A stretch of 64,000 bases of DNA from Acidimicrobiia bacterium (GCA_050742015.1 JBOGEV010000118.1:3962-67961); one strand, 5' to 3'. Shown: positions 381 through 10,846, counted from the stretch's first letter. Program-made: numbers and translations. The notes: generated by a model not told the origin, from the letters alone.

Positions 381-998
381 GTGAATGAAATCCCAAAGGC
401 CACGGTGGTCAGGCTCCCCCGGTACCTCCGTCTGCTGGAGGACCTGGACTCATCCCGGGATGTGATCAGCTCCGAGGAACTGGCGGTGGCGGCCGGGGCC
501 AACGCAGCGAACGTTCGACGCGACCTCTCTCACCTCGACTTCCACGGGGTCCGTGGCATCGGGTACTCGGTTGGCGAGCTGATGGCCCGGATCCGCCAGG
601 AGCTCGGCATCGCCGAAAGGAGGCGGGTTGCCATCGTCGGAGCCGGCAACCTGGGCCGAGCCCTGGCCAACTACGGAGGGCTGGGACGACGCGGATTCGA
701 TGTAGTCGCCCTTTACGACACCGACGTCCGAAAAGTGGGCTCCAAGGTCGGAAGTGTCACCATCCAGCACCTCGACGTCCTCGACGGTGACTCTCGTTCC
801 GACCTCTTCGAGATCGCCATCCTGGCCGTGCCTGCCGTCGCCGCCCAGCAGGTCGCCGACCGTCTGGTCGAGCACGGGATCCGTTCCATCCTCAACTTCG
901 CCCCGGTCCGGGTCAAGGTTCCCGAAACGGTCTCCGTTCGCCAGGTCGACCTCTCGATGGAGCTACAGGTGTTGAGCTACTACGGCTCCCGTCTTTGA
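381..998 (+). CDS. rex: Redox-sensing transcriptional repressor Rex
   Basis: 205 aa with a GTG start. N-terminal IPKATVVRLPRYLRLL DNA-binding block and VAIVGAGNLGRALANY Rossmann NAD(H) site. Confidence 0.9.
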   Translation: MNEIPKATVVRLPRYLRLLEDLDSSRDVISSEELAVAAGANAANVRRDLSHLDFHGVRGIGYSVGELMARIRQELGIAERRRVAIVGAGNLGRALANYGGLGRRGFDVVALYDTDVRKVGSKVGSVTIQHLDVLDGDSRSDLFEIAILAVPAVAAQQVADRLVEHGIRSILNFAPVRVKVPETVSVRQVDLSMELQVLSYYGSRL

Positions 999-1173: not shown

Positions 1174-1545
1174 CTAAGCCGAGGACTTCTCTTGTACCTC
1201 TTCGTATTGGTGGAGGGCGACCAGGAAAGCCAGGAACAGGACCAGGGAGACCAACAAATAGGTGATCGGGATGATCCGGATTTCCAAGGCGTTGAGACCC
1301 TCGATGTCGTCGGGCTTGGGGCCACGAGGGGCATAGACCACGAACAGCATCGAGGTGATCGTCAGCCAGCCAAACACCGCCGACCCGGTCACCAGAAAAC
1401 CAAGCCTCTTGCCCAAATTGGTCCAGTTGAACAGGTAGATCGAGCCGTAGAACAACAACACCGCGCCCAGGGTCAAGATGATCCCGGTGACGAAGAGGTT
1501 GGCCGAAAACAACGACCGGAAGAACTCACGGAAGAACACTGACAC
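1174..1545 (-). CDS. Small polytopic membrane protein, last gene of the Rieske/cytochrome b operon
   Basis: 123 aa with 3-4 hydrophobic spans. Overlaps the upstream cytochrome c gene by 20 nt. No family recognised. Confidence 0.55.
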   Translation of the reverse strand: MSVFFREFFRSLFSANLFVTGIILTLGAVLLFYGSIYLFNWTNLGKRLGFLVTGSAVFGWLTITSMLFVVYAPRGPKPDDIEGLNALEIRIIPITYLLVSLVLFLAFLVALHQYEEVQEKSSA

Positions 1546-3448
1546 CCTCCTTCCCGTCCATGTTTCCGGCCCTCAAGAACCGGGCCAACAACTTGATGTC
1601 CTCCACGGCGAGACTTGGACCGAAAGCAGGCATCCGGCCGGAGCCGAATCCGTTAAGACCGTACGGGGTCTCAGCCTCCGAGCCTCGGATCAGGAATTGG
1701 AGCAGGAGGTCGTCCTCGGGGTTCTCGGTGGCATCGCCGAACTGAACGGTGGGCCGGCCGTCCCACAGGGCGGGACCGAAGCCGCCCGAGCCCGCCTCCT
1801 GGGTGTAGGGGACACCGGCACTGAATCCCGCGGTGTGACAACGAGCACAGTTGGAGTTGAAGAGGCCGACAGCCCGCTCCGCCTCCTCGACCGAAGACCC
1901 CATGGCCTCGGCCACGCCATCGAAGTCGATGGAGTACAGCTGGGCCTCGAGTGACTCCTCGAGGAAGTCGAGACCGGCGCCTTCGGTGTCCAGAAGCGTC
2001 TTCTGGTTGTCGGTCGCCACGGTGAGCTGGGAGGCCAAACCCTCCAGGCTCCCGACGAAGGCGCTGGCGGTGGCGGCGTCCGGCTCGCCTCCGACCGAGG
2101 CCGGGTTGGTCGGGTCGAGGCTGATCAGGGTGATCTCGGAGGGTGTGGTGGCCGTGATCGCCGCCCCGACCTGGGTCGTGATGTCGTTCTCGGCAGCGGT
2201 GGAGAGCCCGTCCCCGTCGGGATCGGAGCCGCCCTCGATGGCGGCCGTCGTGGTGGCGAGCAACTCGGTGGCCGCTTCGATCGGTTCCTCAGCTGTCGTC
2301 GCCGCCTCCAGGGCAGCGGCCAGCTCGTTGGCTCCGTCCAGGTCTTCGACGACGCCCGGGACCTCGATCCCCGCCGCCTCAGCGGCGGCACGGGTCTCCT
2401 CGATCTCGGTCAGAGCAGCGGTGCTGAGCCCCACGGCCGGGTCGACGGAGCCGGCCTCGATGGCCGCCTCGACCGCAGCCACGTTGTTGAGGACGATGGG
2501 ATCGGTCTCCGAGGCGGTCTGGAGGGCGGCCAGCGCCTCATCGGCCAGCTCGGCATCCGGTGTCTCCGGGTCGAGGGTCACCGGCTCCATGATGCGGAAC
2601 CCGTCCACGGCCTCCTGGGAGATGGCGCTGAGCTCGGTCTCGGCGGCATCGGAAAGGCCGTCGGCATCGGTGTCCAGCCCGGTGCCCGCTCCGTCGAGAG
2701 CCTGGCGCGAGGCGGTCGCCAACGGCACCAGGAGGTCGGCGTCGGCCGGCGCCGATTCGATGTCGGCGACTACCTGGCTCTGGGTCAGGATGGCGGCTTC
2801 CACGGTGGCGTCGGCACCTTCCAGCGTGCCCAGGGCAGCGCTTATGCCGGGCTCCACCTCTCCCAACGCCTCGGGTTGGGAGATCTGGATCGTCTTCAAA
2901 TAGTTGACGACGTCGACCACCTGCTCCTCGTTGAGAGGCCCGCCACCGGGGACCCCCCAGGCCGGCATCGGGGTGTTGCCCCGCCCGTAGGTGACCCAGA
3001 AATTGACCTCGTCCTCGTCGTACCGGAAGAAGACATCGTTGAGGGAGGGTGCCGCCCAGCTCACGGTCACGCCCGACCGCTTCTCGACATAGGGGGCAAC
3101 CCCACCCGAGCCCTCGGGGCCATGGCAGGAGAAGCAGGCGAACTCCTCCACGATGTGGTCGCCGCGCGCAATGGAACCCGCGGCGAACTCGTCGACGAAG
3201 CCCTGCTGTCGGGCGGGCTCGGTGAGGAAGTACAAAGGGAGGGATATGGCGAGAAAGGCGGAGAACGCAATGGCCGCCTTTTGCCCGCCCTCGAGGCGGC
3301 GGGTCTCGATCTGTTCGTCGTCGATCCCGGGTCGGAGGTTGAGCGACACCTCCTCGCCACCACGGTTGCGGATGGCCGACACGAAGAGCATGCCCAGCCA
3401 GGCGATGCCGGCAACGACGGCGATGACCGTGATGATGCCGGCGGTCAT
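1526..3448 (-). CDS. Membrane-anchored dihaem c-type cytochrome (QcrC-like) with a long acidic insert between the haem domains
   Basis: 640 aa. Two CxxCH motifs (CFSCH aa105-109, CARCH aa534-538) and N-terminal TM helices. ATGA overlap with the Rieske gene at 3445-3448. Confidence 0.8.
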   Translation of the reverse strand: MTAGIITVIAVVAGIAWLGMLFVSAIRNRGGEEVSLNLRPGIDDEQIETRRLEGGQKAAIAFSAFLAISLPLYFLTEPARQQGFVDEFAAGSIARGDHIVEEFACFSCHGPEGSGGVAPYVEKRSGVTVSWAAPSLNDVFFRYDEDEVNFWVTYGRGNTPMPAWGVPGGGPLNEEQVVDVVNYLKTIQISQPEALGEVEPGISAALGTLEGADATVEAAILTQSQVVADIESAPADADLLVPLATASRQALDGAGTGLDTDADGLSDAAETELSAISQEAVDGFRIMEPVTLDPETPDAELADEALAALQTASETDPIVLNNVAAVEAAIEAGSVDPAVGLSTAALTEIEETRAAAEAAGIEVPGVVEDLDGANELAAALEAATTAEEPIEAATELLATTTAAIEGGSDPDGDGLSTAAENDITTQVGAAITATTPSEITLISLDPTNPASVGGEPDAATASAFVGSLEGLASQLTVATDNQKTLLDTEGAGLDFLEESLEAQLYSIDFDGVAEAMGSSVEEAERAVGLFNSNCARCHTAGFSAGVPYTQEAGSGGFGPALWDGRPTVQFGDATENPEDDLLLQFLIRGSEAETPYGLNGFGSGRMPAFGPSLAVEDIKLLARFLRAGNMDGKEGVSVLP

Positions 3449-4335
3449 GCCTCAGCCACAGCGCTGATGCAGCTCGGCCCCTGGGGGTACTCGACACTTG
3501 GCGCGGGTGCCCGGGGCGTTTCGATGATATCCCCGGTCCTGATGAAGAAATTGCCCCCGCGGTTCTCCACGACGAACCGATCGAGGTTGCGTGGCGCGGG
3601 CCCGCCGAAGTACTCACCGGCGGCGTTGTACCTCGAGCCATGGCAGGGGCACTCGAAGCCCTGGGACGGTGCGCACCACGGGACCCGGCACCCGAGATGG
3701 ACACAACGCATGTAGAGCGCCATGAGACCGTCGGTGGCCACGCTCTTGCCCTCGAACTGCTCGGACAGTTCTTGCGGAGCGGGGACCAGGTAGGCCCGGG
3801 CCTCGGGGATGAACAGTGGCAGCACCCCCCCGGTCGATGTGAACACTTGTGAGCGGAGATCGGCAACGGGCCCGGCATCGATATCGGCGCCGAAACCTCC
3901 GGTCAGCTTGGGCCAGAAGAAGGCGAGGTAGTAGAGACCTTGGGCGGCGAGAAAAGTGCCGAAGGTGGCAGTGATGGCCCGATTGAAGAACTGGCGCCGG
4001 CTCACCCCACCCTCCTCGGGCGACACCTCGACTATCCGTTGCTCCTCGATGATCTGGACGCCGGCTCCGGCCCCATTCGCCTCGACCGGCACCGGCTCGA
4101 GCTCCTCAGGCTCGGCCACCTCCTCGACCTCGGGCTCGGCCACGGTCACGACCCGGGGAGGGATGGTCACGGTCCGGGCCGACCTGTCGGCGACTCTGGT
4201 CTCCTCGGTCACCCCAGCGAAGGGATCGGGTTTCTCGGCGGTTTGGGACCGGCGATAGGCGACCGCGAACGCCCCGGCCGCCCCGAGGATCGCCACCACG
4301 GCGACGGCAATCAGGGCGGCGTTGGTCAAGGTCAT
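3445..4335 (-). CDS. Rieske [2Fe-2S] subunit of a cytochrome bc-type complex
   Basis: 296 aa. CVHLGC...CPCHGS Rieske boxes and an N-terminal TM anchor. ATGA overlaps at both ends. Confidence 0.9.
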   Translation of the reverse strand: MTLTNAALIAVAVVAILGAAGAFAVAYRRSQTAEKPDPFAGVTEETRVADRSARTVTIPPRVVTVAEPEVEEVAEPEELEPVPVEANGAGAGVQIIEEQRIVEVSPEEGGVSRRQFFNRAITATFGTFLAAQGLYYLAFFWPKLTGGFGADIDAGPVADLRSQVFTSTGGVLPLFIPEARAYLVPAPQELSEQFEGKSVATDGLMALYMRCVHLGCRVPWCAPSQGFECPCHGSRYNAAGEYFGGPAPRNLDRFVVENRGGNFFIRTGDIIETPRAPAPSVEYPQGPSCISAVAEA

Positions 4336-5495
4336 TCGAACTGCACCCAGTCCTTGAGGTCGTCGAAGAAGACTCCGTCCTGCCAGGGGTAGGAGAAGTT
4401 GAAGCCGAGACCGCGGAACAGCACGCCGAAGATGGTGAGCGTGGCCGCCCCAGCGAGGAACACCGAATAGAGGGCGATGGCGAACTTGCGGTCACTGGGC
4501 CTGGTCGATGGGTTCTTGTCGACGTAGGGCACCAAGAAGAACCCGATGATCCCGGTGACGGTCGGGATCATCACCCCGGCGATCTGAGGGTCGAAGTAGG
4601 ACAGCAGCTCCTGCAGACCGAGGAAGTACCACGGCGCCTTCGACGGGTTGGGAGTGGCGTTGAAGTTGGCCGGATCGAGCAACGGGGAGTGGATGATCAC
4701 CGACAGGATCACCAGGAATCCGGTGATGGCCAGGAGCGCCCCGAACTCCATCAGCATCAGGTGGGGCCAGGTGTTGACCTTGTCCGTGGGCTCCGCTTTG
4801 ACAGCCTGGATCGCCCTGGCCTTGACCACGGTGAGCAGACGCTGGGAGCGCACCCCTTCCGGTGTCCCCTTCGGCGGGACGGTGGGACGGGGGCTGACCA
4901 AAGCCGCCACCTTGCCATTGCCGGCGCCATCGCCCTCCGGAGCGGGGCGATCCTCGACTGCGGTGGCCACGGACGCGGCGGCGGGCTCGGCCGTGGTCGC
5001 GGCCGCTATCTCCTCGGCGGGGGGAGTTCCCCCAGGCTCACCGGGGGCCGCGGGTTCGGCCGCAGGCTCGGCCGCTGGCTCCTCTGTGGCCGACTCCGGC
5101 GGGGACACGGCTTGTTCACTGTCTTCCACCGGCGGCGCTTCGGTGGGCGGGGCAGGGGAAACCTCGGCTTCAGTCTCGGCCTCCACCTCGGGCTCGGCGT
5201 CGGCGGCGTCATCGACCGGGGCCTCTTCCACCGGCTCCGGCTCGTCTTCGACCGACTCGATTGCCTCTTCGATCTCCTCGGAGCGCTCGGCGGCCTCCTC
5301 CATCTCCTCGGCCACGGTCTCTTCAGAGGCCGCCGCGGACTCGGCCTCGCCAGCCGGCTCCGGTTCGGCCGACGGGGGCGGAGTGGGCGGTGCCTCGCCT
5401 TTCATCTCGGCCAGGACCTGCTCAACGGGCAGCCCCAACGCCTTGGCCTTGGCCTCAGCCGACCTTCTGAGAAGACTCTCTGGGATTTCGGTCAT
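4332..5495 (-). CDS. Cytochrome b C-terminal half / subunit IV-type protein with a long acidic N-terminal extension
   Basis: 387 aa. The C-terminal 3-TM region carries NPSKAPWYFLGLQELL (PEWY-type Qo motif region). The N-terminus carries the shared RSA..A.A...G..V..VL module plus a Glu/Ala/Pro-rich linker. Confidence 0.85.
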   Translation of the reverse strand: MTEIPESLLRRSAEAKAKALGLPVEQVLAEMKGEAPPTPPPSAEPEPAGEAESAAASEETVAEEMEEAAERSEEIEEAIESVEDEPEPVEEAPVDDAADAEPEVEAETEAEVSPAPPTEAPPVEDSEQAVSPPESATEEPAAEPAAEPAAPGEPGGTPPAEEIAAATTAEPAAASVATAVEDRPAPEGDGAGNGKVAALVSPRPTVPPKGTPEGVRSQRLLTVVKARAIQAVKAEPTDKVNTWPHLMLMEFGALLAITGFLVILSVIIHSPLLDPANFNATPNPSKAPWYFLGLQELLSYFDPQIAGVMIPTVTGIIGFFLVPYVDKNPSTRPSDRKFAIALYSVFLAGAATLTIFGVLFRGLGFNFSYPWQDGVFFDDLKDWVQFE

Positions 5496-5504
5496 AACGA
5501 CTCC

Positions 5505-6281
5505 TTAGAGCGGCCCGGATATCCCGCCATCCTTGCGCACCCGCCAGAAATGGACGGCGAGGAAGAGCACGAGGATGAACGGCAACGCCAGCACGTGCAG
5601 GACATAGAAGCGGAGCAGGGTGGCGCCGGAGACCTCCACTCCGGCGAGGAGGGCGAACTTGACCTGGCTGCCGACGACGGGGACGAAGCCGGCCATGTTG
5701 GTTCCGACCGTCACCGCCCACAGCGCAAGCTGGTCCCAGGGGAGGAGATATCCGGAGAAAGAGAGGAGCAGGGTCAGGAACAGGAGCACCACGCCGACCA
5801 CCCAGTTGAACTCCCGGGGCGGCTTGTACGCGCCGTGATAGAAGACCCGGCTCATGTGCAGGAACACCGAGAGCACCATCAGATGGGCCCCCCATCGGTG
5901 CATGTTCCGTACCAGAGACCCGAAGGCAACGTTGGTGGACAGAGCCTCGATGTCCGCATAGGCCGTCTCCGCCGACGGCGTGTAATAGAACATGAGGAAG
6001 ATCCCGGTGATGGTCAGCAGGATGAACAGGAAGAAGCTGAGCCCACCCAGACACAGGGTGTAGGAGAGCCTGACCCCGTGCCGCTTTACCTTCACCGGGT
6101 GGAGGTGATAGAGCACGTTGTTCATCACCACATACGACCGGTTCCTCGGGCTGTCCGAGTAACCCTTCTTGAAGGGCGAGCCGGGACGCAGGATCGATTC
6201 CGCGACCTGCGAGCCCCAGAGTTTCTCGTTGGCCTCTTTGATTCTGTCCTTGAGTCCGGTCTTACCGTTGCCGTTGGCCAA
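5505..6281 (-). CDS. Cytochrome b6-type protein (N-terminal, haem-binding half of cytochrome b)
   Basis: 258 aa, 4 TM. Conserved His pairs in [12 protein letters not shown] and [22 protein letters not shown]. Stops where b6-type proteins stop. Confidence 0.9.
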
Positions 6282-6289
6282 ACCGCCTC

Positions 6290-6739
6290 CTACCAGCGCA
6301 TTCCATAGGCGTATCCATTCTTGAAGTCACGTTGCCCGGTGTCGAGATCCCACGGGCGCCGATCGAGGCCGAGCTCGGCGGCCTGGTCGGCCAGTGAGCC
6401 CTCGAACTTGCCCAGGGTGATGACATTGGTCGGGCAGCGGTCGACGCAGAGAGCACATCTGGTGCACTCGTCTTCGTCGACAACGAAGAAACCAAGGTTC
6501 TGAGGGTCGTCCCCCGGGTGGTCGACGTTGACCCCTTCGGTGATGGCATCCAGAGACAGGTAGTGGATGCACTTCCAGGGGCAGATGTCGACACAACCCT
6601 CACACAGGATGCACTCCGACTGGTCGATGTGGAGGAACTGCTTCGGGCGCAGTTTGTCGGTGAAGTAGTCACCTTCGACCACCGCCAACTGGTAGTCATC
6701 GCGGTACGGAGGGGTCTCGTCGACGACACCCTTGGGCAT
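6290..6739 (-). CDS. 2x[4Fe-4S] ferredoxin-domain protein encoded inside the bc operon
   Basis: Internal ATG of track ORF 6290..7297 at 6739; 149 aa. Motifs [12 protein letters not shown] and [16 protein letters not shown] overlap with the upstream gene's stop, and 8 nt upstream of the b6 gene. Confidence 0.85.
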
Positions 6740-7344
6740 CAGCCTTCTCCCCTCACCAATGGCCGCCCGTATGGCGACCTCACTTCGGGCTTCTCCGCCG
6801 ACGGCGGCGGCCCCTGTCTGATCTTCTGCAACTGGATGGTGAACACCGCGGCCGCAACCAGCATCACGATGTGATATCCCATCGAGATGGAGTCCTTGAT
6901 GGCGGCCCAGCTGAGCTGGACATCGTTGCCCAACACCAAGAACGGCGGGATGGCGACGGCCACCCTCTGCGACGACCAGTCGAGATCGGTCTGAGCGAAG
7001 TTGAGCCATTCCGAGGGAACCATCCCGAAGATGAGGACCAGCTCGATCCAGGTGATGAAAGAGGCGAACAGGGCCCGAGCCCAGGTCATCTTCAGGTTGA
7101 GCACCCAGACGAAAAGGGCGCCGACGACCAGCATCTGGGAAGCGGCGAACACCACGAGGTAGCCGAGGCCCTTGAGGATGTGACCTCTCGGGATCCAGTC
7201 GAAGAAGCCGGCATCCTGCTCCGGAGGGAGACTGGTGAAGTGGATCCAGATCACCCCGACGACCAGAGCGAGAAAGCCGAGCCCGAGCAACCCCCATCCG
7301 ATGCTCTTGCGTCTGCTGTCACTCAGTTCTGCCAGGCGGTACAT
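6739..7344 (-). CDS. Polytopic membrane protein, first gene of the bc operon (family not recognised)
   Basis: 201 aa with about 5 hydrophobic spans. Translationally coupled (ATGA) to the ferredoxin gene. Confidence 0.55.
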   Translation of the reverse strand: MYRLAELSDSRRKSIGWGLLGLGFLALVVGVIWIHFTSLPPEQDAGFFDWIPRGHILKGLGYLVVFAASQMLVVGALFVWVLNLKMTWARALFASFITWIELVLIFGMVPSEWLNFAQTDLDWSSQRVAVAIPPFLVLGNDVQLSWAAIKDSISMGYHIVMLVAAAVFTIQLQKIRQGPPPSAEKPEVRSPYGRPLVRGEG

Positions 7345-7501
7345 CTCTCGTCTTCGGGTGCGGTCGAATTACCTGTTCACGTCGTTTGTACCACAACCCG
7401 GGTGTCGTTACAGAACCTGGCGAGCGCGTCAGGGGTGTCTGCGGAAGGAATCGGCCGAGCAGTTATGCTCCCGCCCGTCCCGTTCCGCGACGAGGGAACC
7501 G

Positions 7502-8974
7502 TTGGCCGCAACCCAAACTGCAGATATCAGGGCCCTGCTCGGAGCGGGCGCCGAGGATCGGGTCGCTGCCGCCCACTTCCTGGCCGGCGCCATGTTCCTG
7601 GTCTTGGCCGGCGCCCTGGAGCTCCTCGCCCTTTTCTCTCTGAGGTTCGCCGGGCTCTCGCCGGTGAGCTTCGGCCGGGCGGAGTCGATGGCCAATGTCA
7701 CCGTCATGCTCGGTTTCCTGGTGCTGACCCTGTCCGGAGGCATCTACTACGTGCTCCCCCGTCTCACCGGTACCAGGCTCTGGCGAAAGGAACTGGCCAT
7801 CCTCGGCCTGGTCGGAACATCGGGGCTAGTCGTCATCGACGTGCTCGCGGTGGTCCTCGGTCTCGGCGACGGCCGTCAGCCGTTCGGGCTTCCCTGGTGG
7901 CTCCACATCCCGATGCTCGGACTGCTGGCCATCCCGTTCGCCATCACCATGATGACGATCCGGCGAAGGGAGGAGAAGCGAAGCTTCGTCACGCTCTGGT
8001 TCGTCATCGGCGGCGCGACGTGGCTCCCACTGCTCTATCTGGTCTACTTCGCCGGCGAGCTGCCTTTTGTGTCCTCGTTGGGCGAGGCGTACACAGACCT
8101 CTTCTTCACCGCCGGCTTCGTCACACTCTGGGTGTTCACGGTGGGCAGCGGGCTCTTCTATTACACCGTCGTGAAGGAGCTCGAGATTCCCCTTGCCTCC
8201 CGTCAACTGGCCTCGGTCGGCTTCTGGTCGCTCGGTTTCGCCGCGGTTTGGTGGGGGACGGCTCAGCTCGTGTTCGGCCCCGGTCCGGGCTGGATCGCCG
8301 GCGTCTCGGCGGCGCTCGGGCTTGCCTTCCCAATCGGAGCATTGGCCAACGCCTCGAGCGTCTCCCTCACTCTCCAGGGGCACTGGGAGAAGCTCGGTGA
8401 GAGGCCGGGCGTCGTGTCGGGGGTCGTCGGCCTCTATCTCGGGGTAGTCGTGGCCGTGCTGGCCAGCTTCGCCTCCTTCCCCTCGGTGGGATCGGTCACC
8501 GCTCTCACTGCATACTGGGAGGCGATCGAGTACGGCGCTCTGTTCGGGGTGGGCACTCTGCTTGCCGCAGGACTCACCTTCGAGGCGTTGCCCAGGGTCT
8601 CGGGTCGCGACCTGAGCTCCCTCGATCGACCACGGTCTTTCAACCGATGGACCGTGATCGGTGTCGGCGGTGTCATGCTCAGCCTCATCGCTTCCGGCCT
8701 CGTCAGCGGTTATTCCTGGGTGGCCGGCTCCAACAGCGCCGCGTATATCAACGCGGGGGAAGGTTGGGCGCAAGGCGCCGGAGCCGCCGAGGTCCTGCTC
8801 CTCATCGCTTTCGGGTTCGGCATCATCGCCTTCATCGGCCAGTTGGCATATGCAGCCACGGTCATCGGCACCATCACCATCGGCCGTGCCGTGCCCCAGG
8901 AGGTGCTGGTCTACGGCTCTGAGGGAGAGCAGAGCGTTGGGACGGTCGCTGTGGAAGAGACCGACGATGAGTGA
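7502..8974 (+). CDS. Haem-copper-oxidase subunit I-like (CcoN-like) 12-TM protein apparently lacking the canonical His ligands
   Basis: Tail of track ORF 7235..8974. Proposed TTG start at 7502 after GAGGGA; the start is uncertain. 12 hydrophobic spans. N-terminal pattern AAAHFLAG...FGRAESMANVTV...GGIYYVLPRL resembles CcoN. Only 3 His in the whole protein. Confidence 0.55.
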   Translation: MAATQTADIRALLGAGAEDRVAAAHFLAGAMFLVLAGALELLALFSLRFAGLSPVSFGRAESMANVTVMLGFLVLTLSGGIYYVLPRLTGTRLWRKELAILGLVGTSGLVVIDVLAVVLGLGDGRQPFGLPWWLHIPMLGLLAIPFAITMMTIRRREEKRSFVTLWFVIGGATWLPLLYLVYFAGELPFVSSLGEAYTDLFFTAGFVTLWVFTVGSGLFYYTVVKELEIPLASRQLASVGFWSLGFAAVWWGTAQLVFGPGPGWIAGVSAALGLAFPIGALANASSVSLTLQGHWEKLGERPGVVSGVVGLYLGVVVAVLASFASFPSVGSVTALTAYWEAIEYGALFGVGTLLAAGLTFEALPRVSGRDLSSLDRPRSFNRWTVIGVGGVMLSLIASGLVSGYSWVAGSNSAAYINAGEGWAQGAGAAEVLLLIAFGFGIIAFIGQLAYAATVIGTITIGRAVPQEVLVYGSEGEQSVGTVAVEETDDE

Positions 8975-9800
8975 GCTGAGCGCGGCCGCCGCAGCCGCCC
9001 TCGGCATCCCCGAGGCCATCGTGGAGCGCTCCGCTGCCGCCCGCGCCGAAGAGACCGGGATGACCGTCGACGAGGTGCTGACGGCATGGGCCGGAGGTGG
9101 AGAAATTCCCGCCGCGGCAGCGCCTCCGACTCCGGAAGAGCAGGCGGCAGAACCCGAGGCGGCCCCGGTCGAGACGCCTGCCGCGGAGGAAGGAGTTCCC
9201 CCCTCCCCGCCTCCGGCGGTACTCCCCCCTTCGGGGGGAGAAACGGGTACCCCCTCCCCGGTGCCGGCCCCGGTCGCCGATTCGGGGAAGCCACCGGTCC
9301 TGGTGGGAGAGGCGGACAACCCGATCGCCGTGCTGGTCGGGGTGGTGGCCATGTTCGTGGCGGTCTTCCTGGTCGGTTTGGTGGGGCCAGCCCTACCCGC
9401 CGAGAATCCGGGGGCCCGATCCAGTGAGCTCCCCTACAGCGAGGCGGGTCTGCGCGGCCAGCACGTCTACTCGTCGGTCGGATGCGCCTCCTGTCACACC
9501 CAGATGGTCCGGCCGGTGGTGGCCGACGTCGGCCTGGGTGCCGTGACCCTCAACGACAGCAACCAGGTGCTCGGCTCCCGGCGTTTCGGCCCCGACCTCT
9601 CCGACGTCGGGTCGAGGATCTCGGGCAGTCAGATCGAAGGCGTGATCGGAGGGCTGGGGGGGCATCCTTCCCAGAGCCTTTCGGCTGAGGATCTCGCCGA
9701 CATCGTCGCCTATTTGCTCGAGTCTCAGACGATGGAGGCGGCTCCGGCAGAGCCAGCCGATGAGGGAGACGCCGACGAAGAGGAGCCGGCGGAGTCATGA
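8967..9800 (+). CDS. CcoO/FixO-like monohaem cytochrome c subunit
   Basis: ATG at 8967 gives an 8-nt overlap with the upstream stop. GCASCHTQMVRP...RRFGPDLSDVG matches the CcoO signature. Order: N-terminal shared module, Pro/Ala/Glu linker, one TM. Confidence 0.7.
   Translation: MSELSAAAAAALGIPEAIVERSAAARAEETGMTVDEVLTAWAGGGEIPAAAAPPTPEEQAAEPEAAPVETPAAEEGVPPSPPPAVLPPSGGETGTPSPVPAPVADSGKPPVLVGEADNPIAVLVGVVAMFVAVFLVGLVGPALPAENPGARSSELPYSEAGLRGQHVYSSVGCASCHTQMVRPVVADVGLGAVTLNDSNQVLGSRRFGPDLSDVGSRISGSQIEGVIGGLGGHPSQSLSAEDLADIVAYLLESQTMEAAPAEPADEGDADEEEPAES
9183..9245. repeat. C-rich repeat element, copy B (inside the linker-coding part of the CcoO-like CDS)
   Basis: See copy A. Contains a perfect CTCCCCCC-TTCG-GGGGGGAG hairpin (9222..9240). 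In frame it encodes VPPSPPPAVLPPSGGETG. Confidence 0.55.
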
Positions 9801-10846
9801 GCGAGCTCAGCGCCGCAGCGGCCGCCGCGCTCGGTGTCCCCGAGCCGATCGTCGAGCGGTCGGCGGCAGCCCGGGCCGCCGAGACCGGGATGACCGTCGA
9901 CGAGGTGCTCTCGGCCTGGGCGGGCGGTGGAGCCGTCGCCGCTGCGACGCCGGCCGCAGCCGAGGAGACGCCCGCAGCCGAGCCGGAGGCAGAGGCGCCC
10001 GCCGAGGAAGCCGGCCCCGCGCCGGCGCCGGAGATGCCCTCCGAACCCGTGGCACCTGCCGCCGCGGCCCAGCCCTCCGCCGTCACCCGCTCCCCGATCC
10101 CGGCCGAGGTGACCGCAGCCGAGGCGGCGAGCCTGCCCGAGGTGGTCACCGTTCCCACCGCCGGCATCCGGGAAAAGACCAACTTCGTCGTCCCCCGCTG
10201 GCTGGCGGCGGTTTTCCTGATCATCCCGGCATTCGCACTGTTCGCCCTCGGCGGCTCAGCCACCGGCGAGTGCGGAGACGCCACCGAGTTGAGCACCGAT
10301 GTGATCACCGGTGAGGTGGTCAATTGCGATGGAACCGAGTTCACCGGCTCGGGCGCCGGTGGCGGCGGTTCCGACTTCATCGCCATGGGTGAGGACGTCT
10401 ATGCCAATGTTGCTAGCTGCGACGGATGTCATGGCGCCACCGGTGGTGGTGGCGTCGGTCCGGCGTTCGGAAGCGTCGTCTCCACTTTTGGTGCCTGTGC
10501 CGACCATATCGAATGGGTGACACTGGGATCGGCGGGCTTCGAAGCAGCGGGTGAGAGCACTTATGGAGACCCGAACAAGCCCATTGCCGGGGGCATGCCC
10601 CCGTTCGGTGGGACCTTGAGCGAGGAGCAATTGGCCGCGGTGGTCGCCTTCGAGCGGGTCCGCTTCGGTGGGGCGGACCCCGCCGAGACCCTCGTCGATT
10701 GCGGTCTGGCCCCGGCCGAAGGGGAGGAAGGCGGCGAGGGCGAGGCGCCCGGTGAGGAGACCCCCGGTGAAGAGGCGCCGCCCGAGGGAGAGGCGACCAC
10801 CACCACCGTGAGTGGCGCCGAAGCCGGACTCAGCCAGACTCCCTGA
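9797..10846 (+). CDS. Membrane-anchored class I c-type cytochrome (CcoP-like role possible)
   Basis: 349 aa. CDGCH haem motif and GGMPPFGG Met-ligand region. Same N-terminal module as the upstream gene. ATGA overlap at 9797-9800. Confidence 0.8.
   Translation: MSELSAAAAAALGVPEPIVERSAAARAAETGMTVDEVLSAWAGGGAVAAATPAAAEETPAAEPEAEAPAEEAGPAPAPEMPSEPVAPAAAAQPSAVTRSPIPAEVTAAEAASLPEVVTVPTAGIREKTNFVVPRWLAAVFLIIPAFALFALGGSATGECGDATELSTDVITGEVVNCDGTEFTGSGAGGGGSDFIAMGEDVYANVASCDGCHGATGGGGVGPAFGSVVSTFGACADHIEWVTLGSAGFEAAGESTYGDPNKPIAGGMPPFGGTLSEEQLAAVVAFERVRFGGADPAETLVDCGLAPAEGEEGGEGEAPGEETPGEEAPPEGEATTTTVSGAEAGLSQTP

Follow-up and report, generated by a model that had tools for sequence, protein, structure and literature searches.

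In the 2-oxoacid dehydrogenases, the peripheral subunit-binding domain (PSBD) of E2 docks E1 and E3, and the neighbouring lipoyl domains occur in variable tandem numbers. For respiratory chains, bc1-cbb3 supercomplexes with cytochrome cy or CcoP are described for Rhodobacter capsulatus (PMC7876108) and Pseudomonas aeruginosa (PMC10556555), Actinomycetes harbor an obligate III2IV2 (bcc-aa3) supercomplex (PMC8361435), and in the b6f complex the N-terminal stromal tail of PetD controls the STT7 kinase (PMC13287000). Here, we describe a module of about 45 amino acids (aa) at the N-termini of three respiratory membrane proteins, namely a FixO/CcoO-like monohaem subunit, the monohaem cytochrome c encoded next to it, and subunit IV (SUIV) of a split cytochrome b6-type complex III (b6c). 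They are encoded in a 64,000-nucleotide (nt) stretch of DNA from an Acidimicrobiia bacterium (GCA_050742015.1 JBOGEV010000118.1:3962-67961; this whole stretch is called the window), and we tentatively read the module as a cytoplasmic docking handle. To our knowledge, a supercomplex or patch that is organised from the cytoplasmic side has not been described for any respiratory chain.

The module is found exactly three times in the 64 kb when all six frames are scanned with a hidden Markov model (HMM), and the three N-termini are those named in an earlier note on this DNA. Copy 1 makes up aa 1-45 of the CcoO-like protein (8967..9101, plus strand; 86.8 bits), and its ATG overlaps the end of the preceding CcoN-like gene. 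Copy 2, which like copy 1 is of the W-type (see below), makes up aa 1-45 of the cytochrome c (9797..9931, plus strand; 85.8 bits), whereas copy 3, of the M-type, comprises aa 1-34 of SUIV and is without the first helix (5394..5495, minus strand; BLASTP and profile). All three ATGs have a Shine-Dalgarno-like sequence upstream and overlap or abut the stop codon of the preceding gene. Specifically, the cytochrome c start overlaps the CcoO stop codon and is preceded by GGAG at a distance of 4 nt, and AAGGAG lies 6 nt upstream of the SUIV start, directly after the b6 stop codon. The modules are thus translated as true N-termini.

Copies 1 and 2 share 91% protein identity over 45 residues and begin a 194-nt direct repeat (8967-9160 / 9797-9990) that a repeat search returned at 74% identity. 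The DNA identity amounts to 82% over the 135 module bases and to 56% over the linker that follows, and the 29-nt run noted earlier (9051-9079 = 9881-9909) is indeed exactly identical and the longest run common to both copies. Of the 45 codons, 22 differ, 18 of them synonymously and 4 non-synonymously. Since synonymous differences prevail in this way and the DNA identity falls in the linker, the module peptide is under purifying selection and does not stem from a fresh duplication. As to SUIV, the earlier note had allowed that its similarity might fail statistical significance, which it does not. BLASTP of the CcoO module against the whole of SUIV gave E=2e-6, with 12/25 identities at SUIV residues 4-28, and a profile built from 80 W-type modules, hence free of SUIV-type sequences, matched the SUIV N-terminus at E=3.9e-11 (38 bits), the next best of the 835 six-frame open reading frames (ORFs) of the window having an E of about 1.

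In all three proteins the module is followed, as had been proposed, by an acidic Ala/Pro/Glu-rich linker and then by the first transmembrane (TM) helix. Judged by composition, the tether of the CcoO-like protein is Pro/Ala/Glu-rich and spans 65 aa (aa 46-110; 9102..9296) with a net charge of -9, that of the cytochrome c is Ala/Pro/Glu-rich and spans 90 aa (aa 46-135; 9932..10201), also with -9, and that of SUIV is rich in Ala, Glu and Pro and spans 216 aa (aa 35-250; 4746..5393, minus strand) with -41. Behind the tethers lie, respectively, a TM anchor (about aa 113-138) and a FixO-type haem c domain with CASCH at aa 173 (9297..9800, plus strand; PF02433 and hydropathy), a TM anchor (aa 136-154, preceded by R/K/R) and a class I domain with CDGCH at aa 208 (10202..10846, plus strand; PF13442 and PF00034), and the SUIV core with three TM helices and APWY at aa 287 (4332..4745, minus strand; PF00032). 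An N-in topology is known for FixO-type proteins, for anchored c-type cytochromes and for PetD-type subunits. In the cytochrome c, an Arg/Lys cluster directly precedes the first TM helix, and in SUIV a basic segment lies further upstream of the first TM helix. Because of the topology of the host families and these Arg/Lys residues before the anchors, module and tether should be cytoplasmic, a placement that draws on the sequence together with knowledge of the families.

An AlphaFold2 (AF2) model, computed from an alignment of 105 diverse instances from the window and from database proteins with copy 1 as the first sequence, has helices at residues 2-12, 16-30 and 34-41, a mean predicted local distance difference test (pLDDT) score of 87.7 and a predicted TM-score (pTM) of 0.66. 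The view that the module is an independently folding three-helix domain of about 45 aa is thus well supported by prediction. In a natural fragment with two modules, both bundles were predicted with pLDDT >90 and the linker between them as disordered (<50), with a pTM of 0.42, such that tandem modules would resemble beads on a string, neighbours having no predicted contact. The consensus reads xLxxAAxAxG-[MVIL]PExLVxRSAxARAxAxG-x[ST]V[DE][ED]VLAxWAGG. Its near-invariant columns (P15, R21, S22, A23, A25, A27, G31 and L38) are mostly small or hydrophobic, and the conserved polar ones are R21, E16 and the acidic pair 35/36. The residue pattern first drawn from the window fits this consensus, in that P15, R21, S22, A27 and G31 each occur in at least 90% and A25 in 100% of the 105 instances. 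Most near-invariant residues probably face the bundle core, by helical-wheel reasoning on column counts and not on model coordinates.

The module had been called unrecognised, and it matches no known family, trivial or otherwise, in Pfam, NCBIfam or the PDB sequences. With Pfam-A 2025 and NCBIfam r20, the module was without a match in the three window proteins and in ten module-rich database proteins, with only scattered sub-threshold or spurious scores (MIF with 24.7 bits on protein P0014; CopG and HTH_32 under their cut-offs). A PDB profile search with the 105 instances against 177,635 sequences had a best E of 0.88. Foldseek, run with the pLDDT-88 model, gave a best E of 0.71, with no match at <=0.001; its 19 matches are designed helical toroids or repeats and ANTAR domains (E 6-9). 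A literature search for the module motif returned nothing on it, and only the placement of Ilumatobacter cytochrome b discussed below and general supercomplex papers. We also considered several more familiar roles. A prosthetic-group carrier on the invariant Ser was rejected, as this residue lies mid-helix and apparently faces the core, and ACP- or PCP-like motifs are absent; DNA binding was rejected because the W-type has a net acidic charge; a Tat or Sec signal because there is neither a hydrophobic core nor a twin-arginine motif; and equivalence with the N-terminal helix of PetD because that segment is present separately beside the first TM helix. The domain family that the module represents is thus real and well delimited, and it had not been catalogued before.

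How widely the module occurs was judged from 80 species-level loci around cytochrome b6 fetched from GTDB genomes, almost all of which are labelled Acidimicrobiia; the few with other taxon labels look mis-binned. The b6-centred gene cluster is conserved throughout. An iterated HMM located the module or a shorter core of it on SUIV, in 1-3 copies, in nearly all loci that cover this gene, and most loci also have it on the cytochrome c that is transcribed divergently. Nearly all loci in which a CcoO gene could be recognised have it on CcoO as well. Where a locus extends to the position in question, the operon nearly always includes a ferredoxin gene, and many loci have a Rex gene next to the cluster. 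With a seven-sequence profile, an exhaustive HMMER search over 1.84 billion cluster representatives returned 410 proteins at E<=1e-3, 156 of them at E<=1e-10, with up to seven matched stretches per protein, and all named sources are 'Acidimicrobiia bacterium', 'Actinomycetota' or 'Actinobacteria'. The module family is lineage-specific. A similarity search with the 45-aa module or the 105-sequence alignment returned only fragments of 43-83 aa, which proved to be frameshift artefacts, and appears to favour proteins of similar length. Many database proteins that consist of the module only, of 65-73 aa, are spurious and arise from frameshifts in the GC-rich Pro/Ala/Glu linkers of long-read metagenome assemblies; such frameshifts split CcoO, SUIV and cytochrome c in the close relatives L001-L003 (about 8001-8222 and neighbouring genes).

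Hosts were sought for 150 of the 410 matches, namely the best ones, and those that could be classified are all respiratory membrane proteins of five types: SUIV of b6c, a TM123-like protein of the b6c operon, the CcoO-like subunit, the membrane-anchored monohaem cytochrome c, and a polytopic protein of about 400 aa. The first copy always stands at the extreme N-terminus. Some monohaem cytochromes c have 3-5 tandem modules (e.g., P0007, P0010 and P0017-P0019), and module arrays are fused to the TM123-like protein in P0005 (7 copies) and P0014. Hence the proposal that the module is shared by subunits of two complexes is right in that it is common to both, but too narrow, given at least five host types, 1-7 tandem copies and a one-helix form elsewhere. 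A scattering over unrelated proteins, which the earlier note had named as a refuting outcome, was not seen: when the 17,961 ORFs in 1.4 Mb of fetched Acidimicrobiia DNA were scanned with both HMMs, long and short, the matches fell only in the expected respiratory genes, with none outside the listed gene positions. The only odd host is P0119, where the module is joined to a glycosylase fragment on a 1.1-kb contig that looks chimeric.

The polytopic family deserves separate mention, as each of its 58 full-length members has a single module, placed at the N-terminus. In two members, a cupredoxin domain (SoxE/Copper-bind) forms the C-terminus, and in 4/6 genomic contexts the gene is convergent to the end of a caa3 operon (COX2-COX1-COX3-COX4-CtaG). 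A homologue is absent from the window and from the 80 loci, so that this host is encoded elsewhere, beside caa3. The family is unannotated, and a family search found it only in Acidimicrobiia; examples of its genes are L088 8001-9206, L089 8001-9185 and L090 8001-9164, which lie 0.3-3.7 kb from CtaG. It is a candidate for a new respiratory component.

A short form of the module was seen among the fetched loci, whereas the long form is accompanied by the CcoN/CcoO cluster in every sampled locus that has it. In Ilumatobacteraceae, Microthrixaceae, Iamia, Aquihabitans and relatives, which are without CcoN/CcoO, only a core of about 20 aa is kept at the same N-termini. This core, [MV]-T-E-[IV]-P-E-H-L-L-K-R-[SA]-x-x-[AR]-[KR], corresponds to the middle helix of the long form, and SUIV of these families usually has a second copy of it (RIPAHLLERSKAAKAK). 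Over 129 instances, the Pro and the first Leu are invariant, and the His, the second Leu and the Arg near-invariant. The His (IPEHLLKRS) is present in 123/129 instances, on the N-termini of SUIV and the divergent cytochrome c in L029-L082, and the long form has Ala, Ser, Pro or Glu at this position. The long form itself comes in two flavours. The W-type (...VLAxWAGG) has a mean net charge of -1.6 and is found on cytochrome c, CcoO and the polytopic family, while the M/L-type (...VLAEMKGE), whose middle helix has a mean charge of +2.3, is found on SUIV and TM123. In most cases, the two flavours thus follow the side of the chain.

The copies also differ in how they evolve. The SUIV copy is slow-evolving, with 83% identity between genomes. 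The modules of CcoO and cytochrome c have a mean identity of 88% within a genome as compared to 71% for the best match between genomes, and for 21/30 modules the paralogue within the genome is the nearest neighbour. These two copies thus evolve faster than that of SUIV, but in concert with each other. In locus L012, 34/35 residues of the two modules are identical despite 18/34 synonymous differences. L044, by contrast, has 0/35 synonymous differences, the modules being identical over 105 nt, and L014 has 3, where synonymous saturation between genomes is about 0.60. This pattern indicates that in some lineages gene conversion swaps the 5′ ends of the neighbouring genes for CcoO and cytochrome c, and that such an event was probably recent in L044. 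Selection for matching module sequences within a genome is possible.

Because the hosts comprise complex III and its acceptors, and because the copies within a genome track each other, we favour docking within the high-potential chain. We give a probability of roughly 40% to the reading that the module is a putative cytoplasmic docking handle on flexible acidic tethers, which holds complex III, its cytochrome c and its oxidases together. The modules would then serve protein-protein docking. On their tethers, the b6c handles (on SUIV and sometimes on TM123) would be able to search the cytoplasmic face of the membrane and bind either the handles of the electron acceptors or a site that these acceptors have in common. 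The acceptors would be the anchored cytochrome c, CcoO in the cbb3-like oxidase, and the polytopic (cupredoxin) protein beside caa3. The high-potential respiratory chain would in this manner be held as a supercomplex or patch in which anchored carriers are spared long diffusion, and more module copies would mean higher avidity. The middle helix (PE-x-LL-x-RS...) would be the ancestral core, and in families without a cbb3-like oxidase the lone middle helix might behave like a short linear motif and fold only once bound.

Several observations weigh against this reading. Two adjacent W-type modules are independent of each other in the AF2 model (pTM 0.42), which is weak evidence against self-association, and helical-wheel inspection of the column counts reveals no large conserved surface patch on the module. 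Occasional gene conversion together with purifying selection is sufficient to explain the similarity within genomes. The split between M- and W-type is not strict, as the SUIV-like P0006 has five modules of the W-type, and both types occur together in P0041, P0044 and P0078. Furthermore, 94 of the 154 database proteins (the 150 best matches plus 4 found earlier) are fragments that could not be assigned to a host. A more far-reaching version of the docking reading strikes us as rather doubtful. It holds that the module is a cytoplasmic 'velcro', in which 1-7 three-helix stickers on acidic spacers cross-link b6c, the anchored cytochrome c, the cbb3-like oxidase and the caa3-associated cupredoxin protein. 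In families that have only the core helix, two SUIV helices and one cytochrome c helix might assemble in trans into the same three-helix bundle.

The explanation that competes best with docking among the respiratory proteins, and that we hold to be nearly as probable, is that the handles do not bind each other but one soluble cytoplasmic partner, which is thereby recruited to several respiratory complexes, much as E1 and E3 are recruited by the PSBD of E2. A small helical domain on Ala/Pro/Glu linkers in variable copy number is the architecture of tethered recruitment domains, and AF2 predicts no packing of module on module; concerted evolution within a genome would likewise fit a common, co-evolving partner. 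Were the partner an assembly or cofactor-insertion chaperone, a kinase or another regulator, one would expect further membrane proteins to bear the module, yet the hosts are confined to the high-potential chain. For the M-type and short forms with their basic middle helix, the most concrete candidate is the acidic 2x[4Fe-4S] ferredoxin of the operon, whose gene is there in nearly every locus that reaches it and whose sequence, by inspection, has many Asp and Glu residues. However, the acidic W-type modules would repel it, and there is no obvious reason for CcoO or a cytochrome c with a periplasmic haem to recruit a cytoplasmic ferredoxin. Rex is encoded beside many of the clusters, but it is a low-copy DNA-binding protein, and up to seven handles seem excessive for sequestering it.

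We regard it as improbable that the module is a cap for biogenesis or stability, in which the functional part is the tail and the fast-folding N-terminal module locks the topology of this acidic tail or blocks its N-terminal threading by FtsH, Clp or the proteasome. Acidic N-terminal tails are prone to translocation driven by the proton-motive force, and those described here are extremely acidic (-9 to -41). The constant position of the first copy at the extreme N-terminus and the mainly structural look of the conserved positions on helical wheels would also suit a cap, but internal tandem copies (up to 7, with further linkers) would be unneeded for this purpose. Moreover, the short form is a single helix that is unable to fold alone and yet is the most conserved part, and a cap leaves unexplained why the hosts are respiratory only and why the tails exist.

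Still less probable, in our view, is that an amphipathic, basic middle helix anchors the N-terminal tails to anionic lipids and so shapes or localises the complexes. The charge of the short form (IPEHLLKRSKAAKAKA), which is +2 to +4 by count on the sequences, and the average of +2.3 for the M-type middle helix are in line with this idea. Against it, the hydrophobic face is weak (one Ile and two Leu, otherwise Ala) and buried in the three-helix bundle of the long form, the W-type is net acidic, and the strongly acidic tethers would be repelled by anionic membranes. Finally, a neutral lineage-specific repeat without dedicated function, carried from gene to neighbouring gene when GC-rich low-complexity linkers recombine, is disfavoured to the point of being hardly credible, since gene conversion between adjacent genes (L044, L014), the highly variable copy number and linkers that the frameshifts in long-read assemblies mark as prone to recombination and error are set against strong purifying selection (18 vs 4 in the window; 34/35 residues identical with 18 synonymous differences in L012), retention on orthologous SUIV and cytochrome c in nearly all of about 80 species from several families, and the presence in 58/58 full-length members of an unlinked gene family together with the 83% identity of the SUIV copy between genomes.

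By gene calls with Pfam and NCBIfam, the host genes belong to two divergently transcribed respiratory clusters in the window. The first (1174..7344, minus strand), whose gene order is kept in the fetched loci of about 80 species, consists in the order of transcription of a small membrane protein, TM201 (6739-7344), the 2x[4Fe-4S] ferredoxin (6290-6739; 149 aa, its ATG overlapping the upstream stop codon), cytochrome b6 (5505-6281), SUIV (4332-5495, directly after the b6 gene), a Rieske protein (3445-4335), a dihaem cytochrome c (1526-3448; CxxCH at aa 105 and 534) and a second small membrane protein, TM123 (1174-1545). The b6 gene encodes a split cytochrome b with the haem-ci motif CLGG at aa 77. 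SUIV is PetD-like, with a PF00032 match of E=5e-7 (30.2 bits vs a cut-off of 20.7), three TM regions, the Qo motif APWY at aa 287 and the b6 gene immediately upstream. The split cytochrome b of Ilumatobacter has been placed in an 'APWY clade', and the b6/SUIV complex of the window matches this clade (PMC4122944).

Three genes of this cluster (ferredoxin, TM201 and TM123) are foreign to canonical b6f and bc complexes, and they recur in most of the about 80 sampled Acidimicrobiia species where the contig reaches their positions; TM201 and TM123 belong to no family beyond faint DUF7139 matches. A b6-type complex that has both a haem-ci motif and a ferredoxin on its n-side recalls ideas of a ferredoxin:quinone reductase activity for b6f. 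In the dihaem cytochrome c, an acidic insert of about 330 aa separates the two haem domains. It contains thrombospondin-type-3-like DxDxDG repeats (DTDADGLSDAAE, DPDGDGLSTAAE) with a faint PF18884 match, suggestive of Ca-binding spacers in the periplasm. In the Rieske protein, an additional N-terminal TM helix and about 90 aa of acidic sequence come ahead of a Tat-like SRRQFFNRA motif and a second hydrophobic helix, a two-helix arrangement that is unusual for this subunit. A gene for a Rex-type redox-sensing repressor (381-998, plus strand) is syntenic with the respiratory cluster across the class, in many loci. A scan of the window for Rex boxes found one site with two mismatches (379-396), which is not above chance, as 36/100 shuffles equal it. 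Rex thus remains a neighbour of the cluster and not a demonstrated player.

The second cluster begins with a divergent CcoN-like haem-copper oxidase subunit I (7235..8974, plus strand; PF00115, 60.9 bits), the true start of which probably lies downstream of 7235. With 86 bits for TIGR00780 (ccoN) vs a cut-off of 583 it is very divergent, and judged by its sequence it may represent a distinct haem-copper oxidase or NOR-like family. In L087 (8075-9997; GCA_030431785.1), a single 640-aa gene with a FixO match, possibly a CcoN-CcoO fusion, stands upstream of the cytochrome c; it is without the module, and the adjoining cytochrome c has four. The CcoO-like protein of the window (8967-9800, plus strand), encoded directly after the CcoN-like gene, scores 42.7 bits with PF02433 (E=6e-11; gathering threshold 29.6) and has one CASCH motif. 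Since it does not reach the NCBIfam equivalog cut-offs (38.6 vs 200.65), it is a divergent relative, and its N-terminal cytoplasmic extension is not part of the canonical FixO/CcoO family. The cytochrome c follows directly (9797-10846, plus strand) and matches PF13442 (E=2.7e-8) and also PF00034. Compared with cytochrome cy, it has the TM anchor and the class I domain, and its long flexible linker stands before the anchor, not after it.

If the handle docks as we favour, bacteria without a soluble cytochrome c would have a new way to wire complex III to several alternative oxidases, by flexible cytoplasmic tethers instead of membrane or periplasmic contacts. The module would then also be a sequence marker for proteins of the high-potential chain in Acidimicrobiia, and it already flags the unannotated membrane family of about 400 aa beside the caa3 operon as likely respiratory. 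Acidimicrobiia are abundant in soils, oceans, lakes and sponges and are mostly uncultured, and we know of no characterisation of an APWY-type b6c complex. Whatever its function, a compact 45-aa domain family that is confidently predicted and uncatalogued deserves a database entry and is tractable for nuclear magnetic resonance and binding work.

In its general shape, the module resembles UBA domains and the N-terminal domain of EF-Ts (TS-N), which are also about 45 aa long, have three helices with Gly-containing turns and serve as protein-binding modules; UBA, CUE and TS-N were absent from the 19 Foldseek PDB matches at E<=10 and from the Pfam matches. In architecture, the closest analogues appear to be the PSBD and lipoyl-domain arrays of the 2-oxoacid dehydrogenases. 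Both PSBD (E3_binding, PF02817) and the module are autonomous helical domains of 35-45 aa with Arg-bearing helices between flexible Ala/Pro/Glu-rich linkers, as is borne out for the module by the linker composition and by the AF2 bundles (>90) and linkers (<50), and the C-terminal flavour of PSBD (...ED[IV]xx[FW]LAGG) is similar to that of the module. The analogy is one of architecture only. The module did not match PF02817, and the PDB profile search returned no E2 chain at E<=10. It is without the PSBD loop G-[TS]-G-x-x-G-R, having only G-x-[ST] between helices 2 and 3, and consists of three helices with a tight turn, whereas in PSBD a long loop connects two parallel helices. The module is also carried by respiratory proteins of the membrane, and PSBD by a soluble acyltransferase core.

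In physiology, the closest analogues would be cytochrome cy in bc1-cbb3 supercomplexes (PMC7876108, PMC10556555) and the actinobacterial III-IV supercomplex (PMC8361435). In the supercomplexes with cy and CcoP, a monohaem cytochrome c that an N-terminal TM helix and a long, flexible Ala/Pro-rich linker keep at the membrane can shuttle electrons between complex III and a cbb3-type oxidase, and the position of the window cytochrome c gene directly after CcoO is that of a third oxidase subunit. However, the linker of cy is periplasmic and leads from the anchor to the haem, whereas tether and handle of the window protein lie on the cytoplasmic side of the anchor, and a cytoplasmic docking domain is not known for cy or CcoP and is not described in the abstracts of these reports (PMC7876108, PMC10556555). 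With the III2IV2 supercomplex, the favoured reading shares the physical wiring of complex III to an oxidase with no reliance on a soluble cytochrome c. In Mycobacterium and Corynebacterium, however, the link consists of membrane and periplasmic contacts and the dihaem QcrC, without cytoplasmic tethered domains, and Acidimicrobiia use the split b6/SUIV complex of the APWY clade (PMC4122944). The PetD tail differs from the module in being about 30 aa long and without a folded domain; in SUIV it corresponds by position to the separate basic segment that precedes the first TM helix, and the module stands 200 aa further out, is shared with proteins other than b6f subunits and has no sequence similarity to it. 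Nevertheless, both are n-side N-terminal extensions of the same b6-type subunit that would serve communication between proteins and not catalysis, such that the PetD tail offers, by analogy, a precedent for the regulatory use of the n-side terminus of this subunit (PMC13287000).

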